Origin: Escherichia coli
GTDB taxonomy: Bacteria > Pseudomonadota > Gammaproteobacteria > Enterobacterales > Enterobacteriaceae
Assembly (NCBI RefSeq): GCF_011045215.1
Contig: NZ_CP049201.1
Strand: one strand, 5' to 3'
Length of the DNA: 64,000 nt
This document shows positions 4,476 to 51,471 of this stretch, one piece after another. The position numbers were made by a program, and so were the translations under genes. The stretch's first letter is position 1. Every line of letters starts with the position of its first letter. The notes under the pieces were generated by a model. It saw only the letters and a program-made list of their open reading frames with translations, was not told where the DNA came from and made no database searches.

Positions 4476-5720
4476 ATGACACAGGCAAACCTGAGCGAAA
4501 CCCTGTTCAAACCCCGCTTTAAACATCCTGAAACCTCGACGCTAGTCCGCCGCTTTAATCACGGCGCACAACCGCCTGTGCAGTCGGCCCTTGATGGTAA
4601 AACCATCCCTCACTGGTATCGCATGATTAACCGTCTGATGTGGATCTGGCGCGGCATTGACCCACGCGAAATCCTCGACGTCCAGGCACGTATTGTGATG
4701 AGCGATGCCGAACGTACCGACGATGATTTATACGATACGGTGATTGGCTACCGTGGCGGCAACTGGATTTATGAGTGGGCCACCCAGGCGATGGAGTGGC
4801 AACAAAAAGCCTGTGCGGAAGAAGATCCGCAACTCAGTGGTCGTCACTGGCTGCATGCGGCTACGTTGTACAACATTGCCGCCTATCCTCATCTGAAAGG
4901 AGATGACCTGGCCGAGCAAGCGCAGGCTTTGTCAAACCGCGCCTATGAAGAGGCCGCTCAGCGTCTACCGGGCACGATGCGGCAGATGGAGTTTACCGTA
5001 CCTGGCGGTGCGCCCATCACCGGCTTTTTGCATATGCCGAAAGGCGATGGCCCGTTCCCGACGGTATTAATGTGTGGTGGTCTGGATGCGATGCAGACGG
5101 ACTATTACAGCCTGTATGAACGTTATTTTGCGCCGCGCGGCATTGCGATGCTGACTATTGATATGCCGTCGGTGGGCTTTTCTTCAAAATGGAAGCTCAC
5201 CCAGGACTCCAGCCTGTTGCATCAGCACGTCTTAAAGGCACTGCCTAACGTACCGTGGGTGGATCACACTCGCGTCGCGGCCTTTGGTTTCCGTTTCGGC
5301 GCTAACGTTGCCGTGCGTCTGGCATACCTTGAATCGCCGCGTCTGAAAGCGGTTGCCTGTCTTGGTCCGGTAGTTCATACCCTGTTGAGTGATTTTAAGT
5401 GCCAGCAACAGGTGCCGGAAATGTATCTTGACGTTCTGGCGAGTCGTTTGGGGATGCATGATGCTTCCGATGAAGCGTTGCGCGTGGAGCTGAATCGCTA
5501 TTCATTAAAAGTGCAAGGATTGCTGGGACGTCGCTGCCCAACGCCAATGTTATCAGGCTACTGGAAGAACGATCCGTTCAGCCCGGAAGAGGACTCACGC
5601 TTAATCACCTCATCATCTCATGACGGTAAATTATTAGAGATCCCATTTAACCCGGTGTATCGGAATTTTGACAAAGGTCTTCAGGAAATCACCGACTGGA
5701 TCGAAAAACGCTTGTGTTAA
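4476..5720 (+). CDS. frsA: Esterase FrsA (fermentation/respiration switch protein)
   Basis: 414 aa ORF, alpha/beta hydrolase-like, conserved gpt-frsA-crl order. Confidence 0.8.
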
Positions 5721-7560: not shown

Positions 7561-8664
7561 ATGAGTGACAGCCAGACGCTGGTGGTAAAACTCGGCACCA
7601 GTGTGCTAACAGGCGGATCGCGCCGCCTGAACCGTGCCCATATCGTTGAACTTGTTCGCCAGTGCGCGCAGTTACATGCCGCCGGGCATCGGATTGTTAT
7701 TGTGACGTCGGGCGCGATCGCCGCCGGACGTGAGCACCTGGGTTACCCGGAACTGCCAGCGACTATCGCCTCGAAACAACTGCTGGCGGCGGTAGGGCAG
7801 AGTCGACTGATTCAACTGTGGGAACAGCTGTTTTCGATTTATGGCATTCACGTCGGGCAAATGCTGCTGACTCGTGCTGATATGGAAGACCGTGAACGCT
7901 TCCTGAACGCCCGCGACACCCTGCGTGCGTTGCTCGATAACAATATCGTTCCGGTAATCAATGAGAACGATGCTGTCGCTACGGCAGAGATTAAAGTCGG
8001 CGATAACGACAACCTTTCTGCACTGGCGGCGATTCTGGCGGGTGCCGATAAACTGTTGTTACTGACCGATCAAAAAGGTTTGTATACCGCTGACCCGCGC
8101 AGCAATCCGCAGGCAGAACTGATTAAAGATGTTTACGGCATTGATGACGCACTGCGCGCGATTGCCGGTGACAGCGTTTCAGGCCTCGGAACTGGCGGCA
8201 TGAGTACCAAATTGCAGGCCGCGGACGTGGCTTGCCGTGCGGGTATCGACACCATTATTGCCGCGGGCAGCAAGCCGGGCGTCATTGGTGATGTGATGGA
8301 AGGCATTTCCGTCGGTACGCTGTTCCATGCCCAGGCGACTCCGCTTGAAAACCGTAAACGCTGGATTTTCGGTGCGCCGCCTGCGGGTGAAATCACGGTA
8401 GATGAAGGGGCAACTGCCGCCATTCTGGAACGCGGCAGCTCCCTGTTGCCGAAAGGCATTAAAAGCGTGACTGGCAATTTCTCGCGTGGTGAAGTCATCC
8501 GCATTTGCAACCTCGAAGGCCGCGATATCGCCCACGGTGTCAGCCGTTACAACAGCGATGCATTACGCCGTATTGCCGGACACCACTCGCAAGAAATTGA
8601 TGCAATACTGGGATATGAATACGGCCCGGTTGCCGTTCACCGTGATGACATGATTACCCGTTAA
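7561..8664 (+). CDS. proB: Glutamate 5-kinase
   Basis: Starts [16 protein letters not shown]; PUA domain at C-terminus; ORF-track start 7474 is an upstream in-frame extension. Confidence 0.9.
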
Positions 8665-10043: not shown

Positions 10044-10119
10044 GCCGATATAGCTCAGTTGGTAGAGCAGCGCATTCGTAATGCGAAGGTCGTAGGTTCG
10101 ACTCCTATTATCGGCACCA
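10044..10119 (+). tRNA. thrW: tRNA-Thr (anticodon CGT)
   Basis: 76 nt GCCGATATAGCTCAGTTGGTAGAGCAGCGCATTCGTAATGCG...TCGGCACCA with anticodon loop tCGTa. Confidence 0.9.
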
Positions 10120-10122
10120 TTT
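10074..10122. repeat. attL: 49-bp tRNA 3-prime segment, directly repeated at 50070-50118
   Basis: Exact 49-bp match ATTCGTAATGCGAAGGTCGTAGGTTCGACTCCTATTATCGGCACCATTT at both positions. Confidence 0.75.
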
Positions 10123-10133
10123 AAATCAATAAG

Positions 10134-11297
10134 TTACACATCATTAGTACCTTCCTTATTTTTTGACTGGGACAAATTTGGGACCGATGGGTTCAGGATC
10201 GAGTCTATTTGCCGTGCGTGTTCGGTAAGGTGATTAGGTGCAAGGTGAGCATATCGACGAACCATTTCGATAGACTCCCAGCCTCCCATTTCCTGTAACA
10301 CTGACAACGGGACTCCGGCTTGAACCAGCCAACTTGCCCAGGTGTGTCTCAAGTCGTGAAATCTGAAATCATCAATACCAGCCCGTCTCAGCGCCGCTTT
10401 CCAGGCTGTGTTTGCGTCATACCGCATCTTCCTTACTGTTGGCGCTTTCGTTCCGTCTGGTTTGGTACAGCTTTCCTTGTACACAAATACCCAACGGTGA
10501 TGATTCCCGATTTGTTTTTTCAAAACGCGACATGCAGTATCATTCAGCGCAACGCCAATTGCGCGGTTTGATTTACTCTCTTCCGGGTTTATCCATGCCA
10601 CCCGGCGCTGCATGTCTATTTGTTGCCATTCAAGGTTGATGATGTTCGAGCGTCTTAAGCCTGTTGCCAGTGCAAATTCAACAACAGACTTTAATGGCTC
10701 CGGACATTCATCAATCAGCCTTTGTGCTTCATGGGGCTCCAGCCAGCGGATCCGTTTATTCTTTGGTTGAGGCACTTTAATAATTGGTGCCTTATCCAGC
10801 ATTTTCCATTCACGCTCTGCGGCTCTTAGTAGGGCCTTTATAAATGAAAGATGCGTAGCCTTCGTTGCAACGGACGCTGGTTTTGGCGTGTATTCTGGAA
10901 CAGGTTTCCCTTTTTTTCTGCATGCTTCTGCCCTGAGTCTCCAGTTTTCCTCATGACGCCGGTTCGTCATTTTCTGCATTGCTGAATAAATTTTTGATTC
11001 AGTAATGTCTCTTAGTTGCATTCCTGCGAAATGTTGAAGCCAGAATCCGATCCGGCTTTTGTCATCGTCCAGTGATTTTTTATGTGCTTTCTCTTCAAGC
11101 CACCTGACACACGCTTCCTCGAACGTTATATCAGGTATTTCACCAAGTTTGCTGACCCGCCATGCTTCAGCCTTTAGCTTGTCATGGAGTTCTGTCGCCT
11201 GCCTTTTGTCCTTTGTTCCAAGAGACTGTTTAAATCTTTTACCGTTCGGCAATGTGAAACTGGCGTACCATATTTCACCTCTGCGGAAGAGTGACAT
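10134..11297 (-). CDS. Phage integrase (tyrosine recombinase)
   Basis: C-terminal catalytic motif [10 protein letters not shown]...RRYAHL; adjacent to tRNA. Confidence 0.85.
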
Positions 11298-22093: not shown

Positions 22094-23425
22094 TTACTGG
22101 ATGAATGACATTTGATTAATATATTTTATCAATAACTCTCTGGGTGTAGTACTCCAAAAATTTAGGTGTTCATAATCAGTATAAACATTGGTGAATTTTT
22201 TAAGTTCTTCATCACTTTTAGGGGCAAATCGCTCATTAAGAGTAATACTGTCTTTAATTATTCCGAAGAATACAATAGATATTTCAGGAATTTGCGATCT
22301 TCTCTCATAAGAATAAGGTATTTCTTTTATGTTAAGCAGATCTGCTAAATGAGATATAGATTCTGCGGTAATTTCTTGTTTTAGTTTTTCCTTGTCACCA
22401 AAGCAATGTATGAAGACAGCTACGACAAAGATCTTATTTATTAAAGGATCACTGCTTTTGTACTCATCGTCGTTTAATAGTTGAAAAATGTTAAGATTGC
22501 GTGAAAAAGTTTGTGTTTCACGTAAGGATAAGTTGGTTCGTTGAATTAAATCACGGATAAATCTACCAGATAAACTATTAATTTCATTTAATGATTTTGT
22601 CTTGTCTACAAGGTAATTCCAATATATAACAGATGTTTTACATACGACGTGACCATTTATTAAACATGTGTCTGGAAGCGTGATGGTATATTTTATAAAC
22701 TTGTCAAGATACTTTTGTGAGTTAATACTATAACCATAAATATGATTTATCGATGCTTTTAATTGTTCTGTGTTTGTAACTAAAATAAAAAAGACATTAT
22801 TGATGTCAAAAATGTGTTTTATTGTTTCAATGACATTTGTTGAAAAACTCGGCTTACATCGGTCTAATTCATCAATTATAATTACTATCTTTTGACTTTC
22901 TGAAATGCTTTCGATGCAAGATTTAAGTGAATTTATGTTTTTCTCTGATTCCATATGGTCTTCAAGCAAATTTTCAATAGTCCCATCTATTGCTGCATTG
23001 CTTGCTTTCTTCATCGCATCTTGGAATTCTTCGGAAACTTCACTAGCCTCCTGTCGTAAAAACCAACCTGCACCAGCTTTTAGTACCGTTTTTAAACCAA
23101 AGCGAATTGCAGGAAGAGATCTCTTAATGAAGTGTTGTTTTTCTTCCTCAGGTAAAATGCTGGCAATTGCAGAGGTTATGAGAAGTAATGGAGATTCTGC
23201 ATGATCCCCTTTAAAGGCATCAATATAAACAACTTTAGATTCAGTTTCTTGCTCAATAATGAGATTTTTCAGTTTGATACTAAATTCTGTTTTCCCTGTT
23301 CCCCATGCGCCGTCTATTACCAGTGGTGAAATGTCTGCCTCTGGTTTTAGCAACTTGATGATATTTTCAGCGATGTTTCTGCGTTGGAACTCGTCACGTT
23401 CAGTGAAAGATAGTGTATCTAACAT
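22094..23425 (-). CDS. KAP-family P-loop NTPase (candidate phage-exclusion/abortive-infection protein)
   Basis: Walker A GAWGTGKT, Walker B IIIDELDRC; AT-rich; opposite strand in Q-to-lysis moron slot. Confidence 0.75.
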   Translation of the reverse strand: MLDTLSFTERDEFQRRNIAENIIKLLKPEADISPLVIDGAWGTGKTEFSIKLKNLIIEQETESKVVYIDAFKGDHAESPLLLITSAIASILPEEEKQHFIKRSLPAIRFGLKTVLKAGAGWFLRQEASEVSEEFQDAMKKASNAAIDGTIENLLEDHMESEKNINSLKSCIESISESQKIVIIIDELDRCKPSFSTNVIETIKHIFDINNVFFILVTNTEQLKASINHIYGYSINSQKYLDKFIKYTITLPDTCLINGHVVCKTSVIYWNYLVDKTKSLNEINSLSGRFIRDLIQRTNLSLRETQTFSRNLNIFQLLNDDEYKSSDPLINKIFVVAVFIHCFGDKEKLKQEITAESISHLADLLNIKEIPYSYERRSQIPEISIVFFGIIKDSITLNERFAPKSDEELKKFTNVYTDYEHLNFWSTTPRELLIKYINQMSFIQ

Positions 23426-45927: not shown

Positions 45928-46341
45928 TCATAGACACATTGATGTTATTCCGGACTGAGGTACCTCCGTAAAAGCCCCACTCACACTTTGAACATCGACA
46001 ATTGCATTAATTTCGCTGTTTACGCGCAACTGACCAAAACCGCCAGTAATGTTTCGAATAGCATCTCCTTGCGATGAAAGCAGAGTTCGCCCACTATCCA
46101 CACCACGTTCATCATCCCATCCACGAATAAATTCACCGCGTAAATCAGGCAATTTATTTGTCGGGTAAGCCTTTGCCAGTTCCGGGTATTCTTCAGCAGA
46201 AAAAGCCGCACCATTGCATTTCAGCCAGCCTGTTGGCGGAGTGGCTGAAGGCCACGGAACAGGCACCCCAACCCCACATGCTGAGCCTTCTCCCAAACCA
46301 ACGTTTATGAAAATGCAGAAATAACGAGCAAATGGCATCAT
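45928..46341 (-). CDS. Alternative tail fibre C-terminal segment
   Basis: Gly-rich ORF on minus strand facing the fibre gene. Confidence 0.35.
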   Translation of the reverse strand: MMPFARYFCIFINVGLGEGSACGVGVPVPWPSATPPTGWLKCNGAAFSAEEYPELAKAYPTNKLPDLRGEFIRGWDDERGVDSGRTLLSSQGDAIRNITGGFGQLRVNSEINAIVDVQSVSGAFTEVPQSGITSMCL

Positions 46342-46367
46342 TCCTGCTTTTGTCAGGGAGATCTACC

Positions 46368-47850
<1,483 letters not shown>

Positions 47851-47930
47851 CTAACCCTTTGAATTTACATAGCGCAAAAAGATACCTTTCCTCATAATGT
47901 GAGCTAATTTTATGTTTCGTTTGATGATCG

Positions 47931-47993
47931 GGTCGGTCTCGAAAACCGGAGTAGGGGCAACTCTACCGGGGTTCAAATCCCCCTCTCTCGCCA
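47931..47993 (+). other. tRNA-Ser-like 3-prime fragment (degenerate)
   Basis: GGTCTCGAAAACCGGAGTAGGGGCAACTCTACCGGGGTTCAAATCCCCCTCTCTCGCCA resembles 3-prime two-thirds of a serine tRNA; 5-prime part missing. Confidence 0.4.
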
Positions 47994-48570
47994 CTTTATC
48001 AATGACTTATCTCCCGACTTCCCGTCTTGCTTTTCCTAAACAGAACAATCGTAGAATATTCTTGAAGGGTTAGATCGTCACTGTTTTCTGTTCGATACTG
48101 TGACATTCAGCACTTGATTCGCTATGGATCTGACAGGAAGGTTTTGAGCGAAAATCTGCAGTTATTCAGTCGTTTTCTTATCGGTCACCATTATTCTTTT
48201 AGACATTGATCCTACAAAGCTGCCGCAAAGTTGGTGGTGGGAACTGAAGTTGCGTAGAGAAGGGGTCAATACCCGGAGGCAAACATGGGCTGGCAAAAGT
48301 GTAGCGGTATTAGGCGCAGCTATTTAGCCTAGTTATGTTTTATGAAAACTTGATATCATATAAGTGTCTTACTTATTGGCTGTAAATAAGTTTTTCTAAG
48401 GAATTGTTTCTTGAGTATCATTTGTAACTGTAACGGAATTTATAATCCTTTGCTTTATTGTTACGGTATTTTTATCACACCCTATTTTTAGTGGTTTTTA
48501 TACTGAAGTTTGGCAAAGTGAACTTTATATACATATACTTCATCCTGTTTCAGTTAAATTGGGTGGATGA

Positions 48571-49315
48571 TATGGCAACTACATGTTCAGTTATATTGAT
48601 TTTGGAGTCCTTTGATGTTTATTTCGGAAAAGAGAGTGTGTTTCTGGAGAGAGGTTCATCTGTACTTGTCGACTCTAGCTCTAGAGATTTTTTCCTGACA
48701 TATCCTGAAAGAGTGATAGTGGCGGATTTTGGCGCTGAGTTTATTAGTCGCTATTTGAAAGCTAATAACTTAAGGGATATTTCTGATTGTAGGGAATATC
48801 CATCTTATTTAAAAATAAACTTTGCTGACTTCAGTTTAATTAAAGGATTAATTAGTTGGGCTAATCACTGTGCTGAATACATAGAAATTTTTGATGAGTC
48901 TATTGCTTTTACATGTCTCTCTGCATTTTCTTCTGAAAAACAATTTGGAGTATTTCTGTTTGGATGTTTGAAAAGCACAGGGGCTAAAGTTAAAACGATT
49001 ATTCATACGGATTTATCTGCACCATGGCGTCTTAAGGATATATCATCAAGATTATATCTCAGCGAAAGTTTACTAAAGAGGAAATTGAAAGAAGAGGGGG
49101 TATCATTCAGTAAGATCATACTTGATGAGAGGATGCAAATGGCTGAATATTTACTCAGCACTCGTTGTTATCCTATTAGTAAAGTAGCTAAGGTCTGTGG
49201 TTATGCCAGTGTCTCATACTTTACTTATGTATTTAGACGTTATTTTGGTGTTTCTCCAAGTCAATACTCTCAGAGGAGTTCAGAAAGTAAAATTCTTACT
49301 CACCAGGGAATCTGA
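48571..49315 (+). CDS. AraC/XylS-family transcriptional regulator (Rns/AggR/AppY-like)
   Basis: C-terminal dual-HTH pattern WRLKDISSRLYLSESLLKRKLK...ILDERM...YFGVSP; AT-rich; start uncertain. Confidence 0.65.
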
Positions 49316-49356
49316 TCATTGTTCTTGCCCCCTTATTTCCAGACAGGGGGTGTATC

Positions 49357-49722
49357 TTAAGTTAACGTTACCCGCTGACGTCGATATTCTCGCGGAGAGC
49401 GATAACCCAACGCACTGTGCGGATGGTTTTCATTGTAATGTTCGATCGCCACTGCAAGATTATGCAATGCCGTTCTTACATTCGGTTTCGGCATGAACGC
49501 GATGTAGTCTTCCTTCATCGTTTTCACGAACCTTTCTGCAATTCCATTACTCTGAGGACTGCTGATTGCCGTTGTGCAGGGCTCCAGATTCAACTCTCTG
49601 GCGAACTGCCGTGTTTCATGCGCTCTATACGCTGAACCGTTATCTGTCAGCCACTGGATGGACTGTTCCGGTACTTTATCGCCAAAGCGTTTTTCTATCG
49701 CTCCTAACATGACATCCTGCAC
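49357..49722 (-). pseudogene. IS3-family transposase, C-terminal fragment (IS2-like)
   Basis: rve integrase-core motif WLTDNGS...[16 protein letters not shown]; only the last ~120 aa present. Confidence 0.6.
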
Positions 49723-50069
49723 TGTCGCTTTATCGTAACCTCCCGTGCTTGCGGCCCAGTCTATGGCTTCACGATCGCAACAGTCCAGGGCGATTCATCT
49801 GGGCCAATCCTCGCTCATAACAGGCATTCACTTCAGTCATGGCAGAAAGGTATGCATGCTGGAGAAGTCGTGAAAGAAAAGAAGACTGCTGCGCCGTTTG
49901 TCGTCACGTTTATCTTCATTGGCTATGCAAGTCGTAATACAAGGTGGGACAAAACTGAGACACATAAGGCCTCGCAATGGCTTGCAAGGCTTTACATGTT
50001 TTGATGTGGTGGGACGTGTGAGCGCAGTGTTGATGGGGTAATGCTTTGAATTAGAAGCGGATTCTTATA

Positions 50070-50118
50070 ATTCGTAATGCGAAGGTCGTAGGTTCGACTC
50101 CTATTATCGGCACCATTT
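50070..50118. repeat. attR of prophage / attL of downstream element: second copy of 49-bp tRNA-Thr 3-prime segment
   Basis: Exact repeat of 10074-10122. Confidence 0.75.
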
Positions 50119-50280
50119 CAACGTCTTTTCCCGTCTATTAAAATCCAAAAAACCCGCATATACTCTAGCTTTGAGCGCCCCCGATAGTGTTTTAACGTCT
50201 ATCAATATCTCCTAAAATCCACGTCTTTTGGGGGTATATTCGGGGGTATATGCTGTGTGGGCTACTGGAGATACCCCCAA

Positions 50281-51471
50281 ATGAAACTAAATGCCCGTCA
50301 GGTCGATACGGCCAAACCGAAAGAAAAACCCTATAAACTGGCCGATGGTGGTGGGCTTTATCTGCTTGTTAATCCCAATGGTTCCCGGTACTGGCGTTTA
50401 AAGTACCGGGTAGCCGGAAAAGAAAAGCTGTTGGCGCTGGGGGTATATCCCGATGTAACCCTGGCTGATGCCAGGGCGAAACGAGATGAGGCCAAAAGGG
50501 GTATGGCTGGGGGGATCGACCCGAACGAAGCGAAGCGGGAAGAAAAATTGAACCGCGAAGCGCAAATCAAAAACACCTTCGAAGAAATCGCCAGAGAGTG
50601 GCATACAGAACGGCAGAAGAAATGGTCTGAGGGGTACGCCTCGGACATTCTGGAAGCATTCAGTAAAGACATATTCCCTTGGATTGGAAAACGCCCCATC
50701 ACGGAAATAAAGCCCCTTGATTTGCTGAATACGCTTAAACGCATCGAGAATAGGGGAGCGACTGAAAAGGCCCGTAAGGTTCGCCAGTGGTGCGGGGAGG
50801 TCTGGAAGTATGCGATCGTTACCGCCCGCGCAGAATATAACCCCGCCCCTGATCTATCTGTGGCTATGGAAGGACACGAAGGGGAGCACTTCCCCCATCT
50901 GGAAGCCGAAGAGTTACCCGAATTTTTCCAGACGCTGGCGACGGCAAAAAGTAACGTTCAGGTTATTTTGGGGCTGCGTCTGCTTATTCTTGTGGGGTTA
51001 CGTCCGGTTGAATTACGCGCGGCCCCGTGGTCAGAGATTGATTTTGATAATGCCTTGTGGGAGATCCCCAAAGAGCGAATGAAGAAAAGACGTCCGCACG
51101 TTGTCCCGCTTTCTCGCCAGGCTATGGTTATTCTCGGGCAATTAAAAGAGTTGTCGGGCCGCAATCCTTTCATTTTTCCGGGCCGGAACGACCCGCGAAA
51201 GCCAATGAGTGAAGGAGCAATTAATCAGCTAATAAAGCGACTCGGGTATAAGGGCAAAGCTTGCGGGCATGGTTTCCGACATACCATGAGCACAATTTTG
51301 TATGAGAAAGGGTATAACACCGAATGGATCGAAACCCAGCTTGCACATGTTGATAAAAATACCATCCGTGGCACATATAATCATGCCCGCTATCTGGATG
51401 GACGCCGGGAAATGCTTCAATGGTATGCCGACTATATGGAATCGCTGGCGAGTGGCAGGGTAAAAGATTAG
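50281..51471 (+). CDS. P4-type integrase (tyrosine recombinase)
   Basis: N-terminal MKLNARQVDTAKPKEKPYKLADGGGLYL typical of P4-family integrases; catalytic HGFRHT... Confidence 0.85.
   Translation: MKLNARQVDTAKPKEKPYKLADGGGLYLLVNPNGSRYWRLKYRVAGKEKLLALGVYPDVTLADARAKRDEAKRGMAGGIDPNEAKREEKLNREAQIKNTFEEIAREWHTERQKKWSEGYASDILEAFSKDIFPWIGKRPITEIKPLDLLNTLKRIENRGATEKARKVRQWCGEVWKYAIVTARAEYNPAPDLSVAMEGHEGEHFPHLEAEELPEFFQTLATAKSNVQVILGLRLLILVGLRPVELRAAPWSEIDFDNALWEIPKERMKKRRPHVVPLSRQAMVILGQLKELSGRNPFIFPGRNDPRKPMSEGAINQLIKRLGYKGKACGHGFRHTMSTILYEKGYNTEWIETQLAHVDKNTIRGTYNHARYLDGRREMLQWYADYMESLASGRVKD

Follow-up and report, generated by a model that had tools for sequence, protein, structure and literature searches.

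Inside a prophage integrated at the tRNA-Thr gene thrW of Escherichia coli, we find a serine-tRNA-like fragment that, judged from alignments, is almost certainly the core of an attR belonging to another tRNA gene, serU. It is still attached to the chromosomal DNA that flanks serU and was almost certainly transplanted into the thrW prophage together with it. The window, by which we mean the whole 64,000-nucleotide stretch that was analysed (E. coli contig NZ_CP049201.1, assembly GCF_011045215.1), contains the features listed in Table 1, and we refer to the tRNA fragment as the relic core.

Table 1. Features of the window around the serU relic, from thrW to the P4-type integrase
Feature	Position	Strand	Evidence
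thrW tRNA-Thr(CGT) gene	10044-10119	+	ARAGORN; Rfam 71.8 bits
Left direct repeat, 3' 49 bp of thrW; attL core of the resident prophage	10074-10122	+	alignment
thrW-type tyrosine integrase, 387 aa	10134-11297	-	Pfam Phage_integrase 3.5e-48
Prophage body	11838-47754	+	megablast blocks 96-98% vs MB15 (11838-48271); MB15 annotation; Pfam
Pin invertase ORF	46332-46922		Pfam Resolvase
LEM-3-like GIY-YIG gene	46868-47805	-	ORF list; PF22945 3.3e-14 on O157 copy
Type-B phage arm (P arm) of old serU attR	47755-47933	+	alignments, chimeric-query search
Relic att core, 3' 62 nt of serU tRNA-Ser(CGA)	47934-47993	+	alignments, sub-threshold Rfam fold
Captured host DNA, intergenic flank after serU towards yodB/zinT	47994-48271 (278 bp)	+	alignment to K-12
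AT-rich AraC-family regulator module	48272-49317	+	Pfam HTH_AraC/HTH_18; GC 0.31-0.37
Truncated IS3-family element	49318-49793	-	Pfam rve_3/rve; IS3-family transposase matches end at 49793
Phage arm of thrW-type attachment site	49794-50069	+	
Perfect 49-bp repeat of thrW 3' end; attR core of the resident prophage	50070-50118	+	100%, E = 1e-22
P4-type integrase	50257-51471	+	Pfam Arm-DNA-bind_3 + Phage_int_M + Phage_integrase; O157 annotation

On the plus strand the relic core (47934-47993) reads CGGTCTCGAAAACCGGAGTAGGGGCAACTCTACCGGGGTTCAAATCCCCCTCTCTCGCCA and aligns to positions 29-90 of the 90-nt tRNA-Ser of K-12 W3110. This reference gene is annotated between mtfA and yodB (locus order tRNA-Asn, mtfA, tRNA-Ser, yodB), and we identify it as serU because of these neighbouring genes. 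The fragment spans the 3' part of the anticodon arm, the variable arm, the T arm and the 3' acceptor strand with the CCA end; the anticodon CGA lies at 47940-47942 and the CCA at 47991-47993. It is identical to serU save for two 1-nt deletions, one reducing a run of five G to four in the T stem (47967) and the other reducing CC to C in the acceptor strand (47988). Upstream of tRNA position 29 the sequence is that of a phage arm, so that, as the preliminary description had stated, the 5' part is missing: neither the 5' acceptor strand nor the D arm is present. Weaker similarity to serU extends back to 47925 (tRNA position 20), the last 9 nt of the arm (47925-47933) being an imperfect mimic of tRNA positions 20-28.

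Homology to serU does not stop at the CCA end but runs on for 278 bp into the chromosomal DNA downstream of the gene. Core and flank align to the K-12 serU locus as one block covering window 47925-48271, with 334/349 positions identical and E = 6e-160, which bears out the 3' tRNA-Ser fragment proposed by the preliminary description and leaves no room for the lack of significant similarity that it had named as the outcome speaking against it. The flank is 96-98% identical to the DNA downstream of serU (96% to K-12 over the whole 349-bp alignment), and the same flank stands behind an intact serU in about 5,420 (5,421-5,424) of 5,426 complete E. coli genomes. The fragment itself matches an annotated tRNA-Ser in 5,422 of these genomes.

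No tRNA finder calls the fragment. ARAGORN, the check that had been suggested from the outset, returned thrW as the only tRNA of the window, and Rfam at its gathering threshold likewise reported thrW alone. In a permissive Rfam scan the fragment scores 27.4 bits with the tRNA clan, below the gathering score of 47. In the resulting fold the anticodon, variable and T arms pair and the 5' half does not, and there are non-canonical pairs in the acceptor and D region. A functional or partial tRNA-Ser is ruled out by these three results. In the promoter and terminator scan we found no terminator-like site in the relic or its flank, and no promoter-like site there outside the region upstream of the AraC gene.

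The order of the parts is phage arm, 3' part of a tRNA gene, host flank, and therefore that of an attR junction. The core matches the 3' part of the target tRNA, a P arm lies on its left and host flank lies on its right. The arm left of the core is the arm found at the native serU attR in MB15, RMDEC332, GF130, PM4 and others. The 278-bp flank is unrelated to the phage P' arm that follows serU in the attL of MB15. The suggestion that the fragment could be a fossil att site from an earlier serine-tRNA integration is thus supported by the phage arm on the left and the 278 bp of serU flank on the right. Beyond that suggestion, the preliminary description had noted neither the captured flank, nor the closing thrW repeat at 50070-50118, nor that lambdoid phages share the relic as part of a mobile module. 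The relic is not an active att site of the resident element, because the window has neither a second serU core nor a serU-type integrase: a search for another serU core in the window found none, and the serU-type Int of MB15 gives only 31% identity over 58 aa, at 10134-11297. The matching attL and cognate integrase of an active att pair are accordingly both missing from the window.

The resident element is bounded by thrW and a perfect 49-bp repeat of its 3' end. This repeat (50070-50118) is the true attR core of the resident prophage, and the serU relic therefore lies inside the element, in keeping with the earlier placement of the fragment in a prophage integrated at tRNA-Thr. A site-specific integrase is annotated beside thrW in LH10-b-1 and in O157 as well. 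The body of the prophage carries early genes, a terminase, an HK97-type head, a Mu-like contractile tail with baseplate, an invertible tail-fibre segment, the Pin invertase and the GIY-YIG gene. From its gene content it appears to be a complete-looking, apparently full-length e14/SfV-like myovirus genome of ~40 kb.

To the left, the relic lies 130 bp beyond the start of the longest GIY-YIG ORF and ~180 bp from the start annotated in O157. In the window, small indels break this minus-strand, LEM-3-like gene into two ORFs (46868-47386 and 47383-47805); the O157 homologue is intact, has 257 aa and corresponds to about 46981-47754. To the right, ~580 bp away, an AraC-family gene at 31-37% GC represents the AT-rich islet, and both neighbours had been named correctly from the sequence. 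Its coding sequence (48572-49315, 247 aa) is identical to O157 WP_000246059.1 by exact-sequence comparison, and a promoter-like site was found upstream of it at 48510-48539. It is followed by an IS3 remnant with an rve-domain ORF (49357-49722) that has no N-terminus. Within the thrW-type arm region, 49811-50004 is ~88% identical to lambda/21 b-region sequence and 49945-50117 is 98% identical to the att region of Shigella phage SfIV.

Since we read the relic as a transplanted attR, the same GIY-YIG gene and arm are expected at the real serU locus in some genomes. We searched complete E. coli genomes with a chimeric query in which window 47600-48271 was extended by the following 400 bp of the native K-12 flank, reaching into yodB, and found the native configuration in at least 7 of them. 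MB15 and RMDEC332 cover 100% of the query. Coverage is 86% in E-ge-1 and F3, whose GIY-YIG gene is interrupted by an IS4, and in Q5, GF130 and PM4 it extends as far as a natural breakpoint that lacks yodB.

The MB15 locus starts with mtfA and an intact serU, followed by three small genes, a 328-aa integrase and a DUF4224 protein, probably the excisionase; then come the early genes, the head genes, the Mu-like tail genes, pinE, GIY-YIG, attR and finally yodB. The block common to its attL and attR is ~68 bp long, opening at tRNA position 25 and extending 2 nt beyond the 3' end, and the relic core covers this whole identity block save its first 4 nt. By megablast the window prophage is collinear with that of MB15 over 11838-48271 at 96-98% identity, with the tail-fibre segment inverted. 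On the circular map, what differs is that the P' arm, three genes, int and xis of MB15 are swapped for the flank, the AraC gene, the IS3 remnant, a thrW-type attP, and int and xis of the thrW type. On this comparison of sequences, the window prophage is in effect the same phage as that of MB15 with a different integration module. The mosaic recombination between prophages that the preliminary description had drawn from the fragment is borne out by this collinearity with a native-serU prophage everywhere but in the integration module.

The segment 44919-46306, beside the Pin invertase, is the tail-fibre segment that is inverted relative to the MB15 prophage. A host-range switch of the Pin/Gin type is expected to invert in this way. 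In PM4, the prophage at the native serU locus has lambda-type J/lom/stf/tfa tail genes and terminates in the GIY-YIG gene and the type-B arm, and this end module is therefore common to siphovirus-type and myovirus-type backbones.

The relic is not confined to thrW prophages. The lambdoid phages PhiR70_1, ev099 and mEp332 contain sequence with 98.6-99.1% identity to window 47933-49793, which comprises core, flank, AraC gene and IS3 remnant; its right limit at 49793 is also the end of the phage matches. In the records of all three phages the arm, core, flank and AraC gene lie between tfa and int; in ev099 the module sits between the tail-fibre assembly gene (tfa) and a 356-aa integrase with its excisionase, which is the position of the lambda b region. 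Host DNA contiguous with attR, the mark of a transducing phage, is thus present inside these phage genome records, and the P'-int-xis block of MB15 is absent from the window. Of the three, mEp332 forms plaques (PMC3442831). At the bio-ybhB (att-lambda) locus, a related prophage has the portion of the module made up of AraC and IS3.

Junction alignments reveal two left arms, A and B, joined to one and the same core. Type A occurs in ev099 and mEp332 and also at the native lambdoid serU attR of SJC33 and SerU-LTIIb; type B is the arm of the MB15-type phage and occurs in the window, O157, LH10-b-1, ECE218, 21B8 and SCEC020026. Among 32 IMG/VR contigs with the flank/AraC junction, 30 could be classified, 24 as type B and 6 as type A. 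Where the right side was readable, arm and right side combine as B with thrW (5), A with ev099 (3) and B with ev099 (1). One contig, IMGVR_UViG_2721755728_000010, has a myovirus-type tail-fibre region, GIY-YIG and a type-B arm, with ev099-type sequence to the right of the IS3 remnant, and both sides of the module therefore recombine independently. The type-B (myovirus) form of the relic was found in prophages only, with none among the virion-derived genomes of the phage collection searched.

About 15% of complete E. coli genomes have the relic, among them O157:H7, where it lies in Sp1/CP-933H. About 820 of the 5,426 genomes carry the type-B arm with the 5' end of the GIY-YIG gene, and in 517 the interval between the relic core and the thrW repeat is at least 80% covered. 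In the genome records examined (RefSeq O157, LH10-b-1) the relic is unannotated. A large subgroup of genomes, SCEC020026 among them, has an IS1 in the captured serU flank (7783-8550 of the SCEC020026 locus record; window equivalent 48149-48158), where it appears to have duplicated 9-10 bp of target. GPEC1165 has lost the relic and has another IS1 immediately to the left of its AraC gene.

The junction between flank and AraC module (48271/48272) is identical in all copies. A relic-specific haplotype of the flank, for instance CA at 48215-16, is found in 37 relic copies and in 0 of 6 native flanks, of which that of SJC33 is the nearest to it. The common junction and haplotype in these alignments point to a single capture. 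The relic core is mutated in 17 of the 37 copies, with about six distinct changes, and the native cores in none of six. The window shares the G deletion at 47967 with LH10-b-1 and two viral contigs, and nine relic copies have TT changed to GG in the T loop. Such a pattern fits neutral decay, with selection neither as a tRNA nor as an att site.

Compared with O157, the window lacks single nucleotides at six places between 47018 and 48546, all in short mono- or dinucleotide runs, and has a CT insertion (indel sites 47018, 47387-8, 47967, 47988, 48395, 48468 and 48546). Together these indels split the GIY-YIG gene, whose frame is broken by one of the deletions. These deletions may be real decay or homopolymer/assembly errors, and the window's private deletion at 47988 could be an assembly error.

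Taken as a whole, the data are probably best explained by a serU attR relic of an e14/SfV-like myovirus that was captured once and is now non-functional and decaying. Such a myovirus was almost certainly once integrated in the serU tRNA-Ser(CGA) gene, and we hypothesize that one imprecise excision of the lambda-bio type brought host DNA from beyond attR into the phage genome. Structure, single junction and haplotype together make imprecise excision a reasonably favoured route of capture. The excision would have retained attR and flank at the cost of the original P'-int-xis block. In its place would have come a foreign integration module, of the thrW type in the window and of the lambda type in ev099, by which lysogeny was restored. 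From there the module could have spread among phage backbones by recombination, with the relic probably persisting by hitch-hiking beside the AraC regulator gene.

The two arms on one flank count against this explanation to the extent that they need an extra recombination step. Core and flank together would provide 340 bp of homology with the attR region of any serU-resident prophage, and ordinary recombination across these 340 bp would suffice to explain the A/B arm swap. Int-mediated exchange at the core is possible but unsupported. The junction of flank and AraC module carries no diagnostic signature, so the illegitimate joint may be at 48271/48272 or at 49793 in the IS3 remnant.

The position of that joint matters for an alternative in which the AraC gene (patE) and the IS3 had first inserted in the chromosome 278 bp downstream of serU, and the phage excised the whole stretch with its joint at 49793. 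In its favour, the right end of the module is a break inside the IS3 followed by two different sequences in different phages, so that 49793 looks more like a novel joint than 48271/48272 does. In E. coli, moreover, the AraC gene always has the serU flank on its left, save where an IS1 has cut the flank. Against it, intact serU, flank and AraC together were found in 0 of the 5,426 complete E. coli genomes (chimeric query, at least 80% coverage). The junction 24-mer is likewise absent from 100,044 species-representative genomes save for one stray contig, JAIJJM010000766.1, 1,480 bp long and with the exact E. coli phage flank/AraC junction; it is assigned to a Collinsella sp. MAG, almost certainly by a binning error. 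The AraC block, at 31-37% GC, also looks foreign to E. coli. We consider a host island unlikely; if it were true, the AraC gene would be transduced host cargo and the relic would document the acquisition of a moron.

It is also conceivable that the relic is alive in another sense, as a secondary attB or homology patch through which serU-specific phages enter thrW or att-lambda prophages and swap modules. Many copies do keep a perfect ~62-bp core, two genuine serU phage arms stand on the same flank, and the combinations of arm and right side are shuffled. Against this, A and B are the only arms among 30 viral contigs and all genomes examined. No two-core locus or hybrid site was found inside a prophage, the native attL/attR pair of MB15 aside, and neither two-core loci nor further arm types were found among the 32 viral contigs and all loci retrieved. 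The excess of mutated relic cores over native ones is what is expected without selection, and ordinary homologous recombination accounts for the arm swap, which makes a live site very improbable. A broader reading, in which the relic is a portable piece of serU bridging serU-specific phages to thrW or att-lambda prophages, exchanging integration modules and spreading the AraC regulator, appears doubtful to us. In a weaker version it would be the first natural molecular fossil of the entry of prophage-end cargo by imprecise excision.

We reject the remaining two readings. A decayed phage-encoded tRNA-Ser that lost its 5' half, the other possibility raised in the preliminary description, could point to the capacity of this phage group for tRNA genes, as in SerU-LTIIb, whose record has tRNA-Arg, tRNA-Gly and tRNA-Thr near the lysis genes. 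This origin does not explain why 278 bp of serU-downstream host DNA follow the fragment, why its start coincides with that of the att identity block of serU phages, or why the identical junction is present at native serU. Lambdoid phage tRNA genes lie in the Q-lysis region, and the fragment sits at the prophage end. Nor does a strain-specific chromosomal rearrangement, in which recombination between thrW and serU prophages moved serU-side DNA to thrW, find much beyond the fact that related prophages occur at both thrW and serU in E. coli. The serU flank is only 278 bp long, and what comes after it is not serU DNA; this composite recurs in hundreds of genomes from various lineages, O157:H7 included, and in packaged phages; and the native serU locus is intact in genomes that have the composite.

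Returning to the captured attR, its closest known counterparts are the native serU attR of SerU-LTIIb (KU052038) and MB15, which have the same core (positions 29-90) and the same first 278 bp of flank, with the type-B arm in MB15, GF130 and PM4. In KU052038 (Escherichia phage SerU-LTIIb) a 62-nt pseudo-tRNA-Ser is annotated at the equivalent native junction. The window copy differs in lying away from serU, with neither partner attL nor cognate integrase, and in having a flank that stops at 278 bp and joins AraC and IS3 inside an element bounded by thrW repeats.

A second parallel is provided by lambda-bio-type transducing phages, which arise by imprecise prophage excision (Campbell model). Like them, ev099, mEp332 and the window prophage combine late genes, b region, attR and host DNA and are missing P'-int-xis. 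Unlike laboratory lambda-bio isolates, the relic phages are natural, fixed and widely spread, contain only 278 bp of recognisable host DNA, and have gained a new integration module that leaves them able to lysogenise.

The arrangement is repeated at thrW in O157:H7, in Sp1/CP-933H and Sp2 (the O-island 8 region). There, sequence 99.5% identical to window 46.5-49.5 kb lies in the same order of pinE, GIY-YIG, relic, AraC, IS remnant, thrW repeat and P4-like integrase. Sp1 has been described as a remnant of ~10-12 kb, classed as 'other' and with no morphogenesis genes, and Sp2 as P4-like (PMC2669165). The window holds an apparently full-length relative of the Sp1 remnant, of ~40 kb. No mention of the serU relic was found in PMC2669165 or in the O157 RefSeq annotation, and our search of the literature on serU and thrW prophages, CP-933H, Sp1/Sp2, mEp332, ev099 and imprecise excision found no description of it.

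By position alone, the AraC gene at 48572-49315 is probably patE (z0321, O-island 8); source names for the exact protein say only 'AraC family'. PatE is an activator of acid resistance and a repressor of LEE, one of the AraC-like regulators of prophages (PMC10877973). Like the PatE, PsrA/B and AppY morons, the window gene belongs to the AraC family, is AT-rich and independently promoted, lies where the tail-fibre end and the att site enclose it, and recurs across unrelated backbones. It differs from this type of cargo in being physically linked to a fossil att site and host flank, which preserve some of its history.

Pseudo-tRNA att remnants, tandem thrW elements, specialised transduction and prophage-end AraC cargo are all known. 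To our knowledge, natural phage genomes that keep an old attR with a recognisable host flank have rarely been documented. Here the donor configuration, the relic and viable carrier phages align base by base, and this set offers a concrete, datable example of a change of integration site and of the pickup of DNA beside an att site. The relic and its flank give these prophages 340 bp of homology with the chromosomal serU locus, directly upstream of an AraC regulator that is probably PatE. They also set an annotation trap, since predictors that use tRNA fragments as boundaries could mistake 47934-47993 for a prophage end and divide a single prophage into two.

Two further elements of the window deserve mention. 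Directly after the thrW repeat, the P4-type integrase opens a P4-like satellite that is the counterpart of O157 Sakai Sp2 and extends from 50257 to about 63000. Within the window we found no further thrW repeat (at least 15 nt, at most 1 mismatch) to close the satellite. The integrase is intact in the window and split by IS1203 in O157, and O157 annotation gives the other satellite genes as 'ABC-three component system', psu/sid/ogr-like and primase. The thrW prophage itself has a 443-aa ORF on the minus strand (22094-23425) that the MB15 prophage lacks, with the antiterminator region on one side and the lysis region on the other. It matches in size and position the 'KAP family NTPase' of LH10-b-1 and is possible defence-type cargo.
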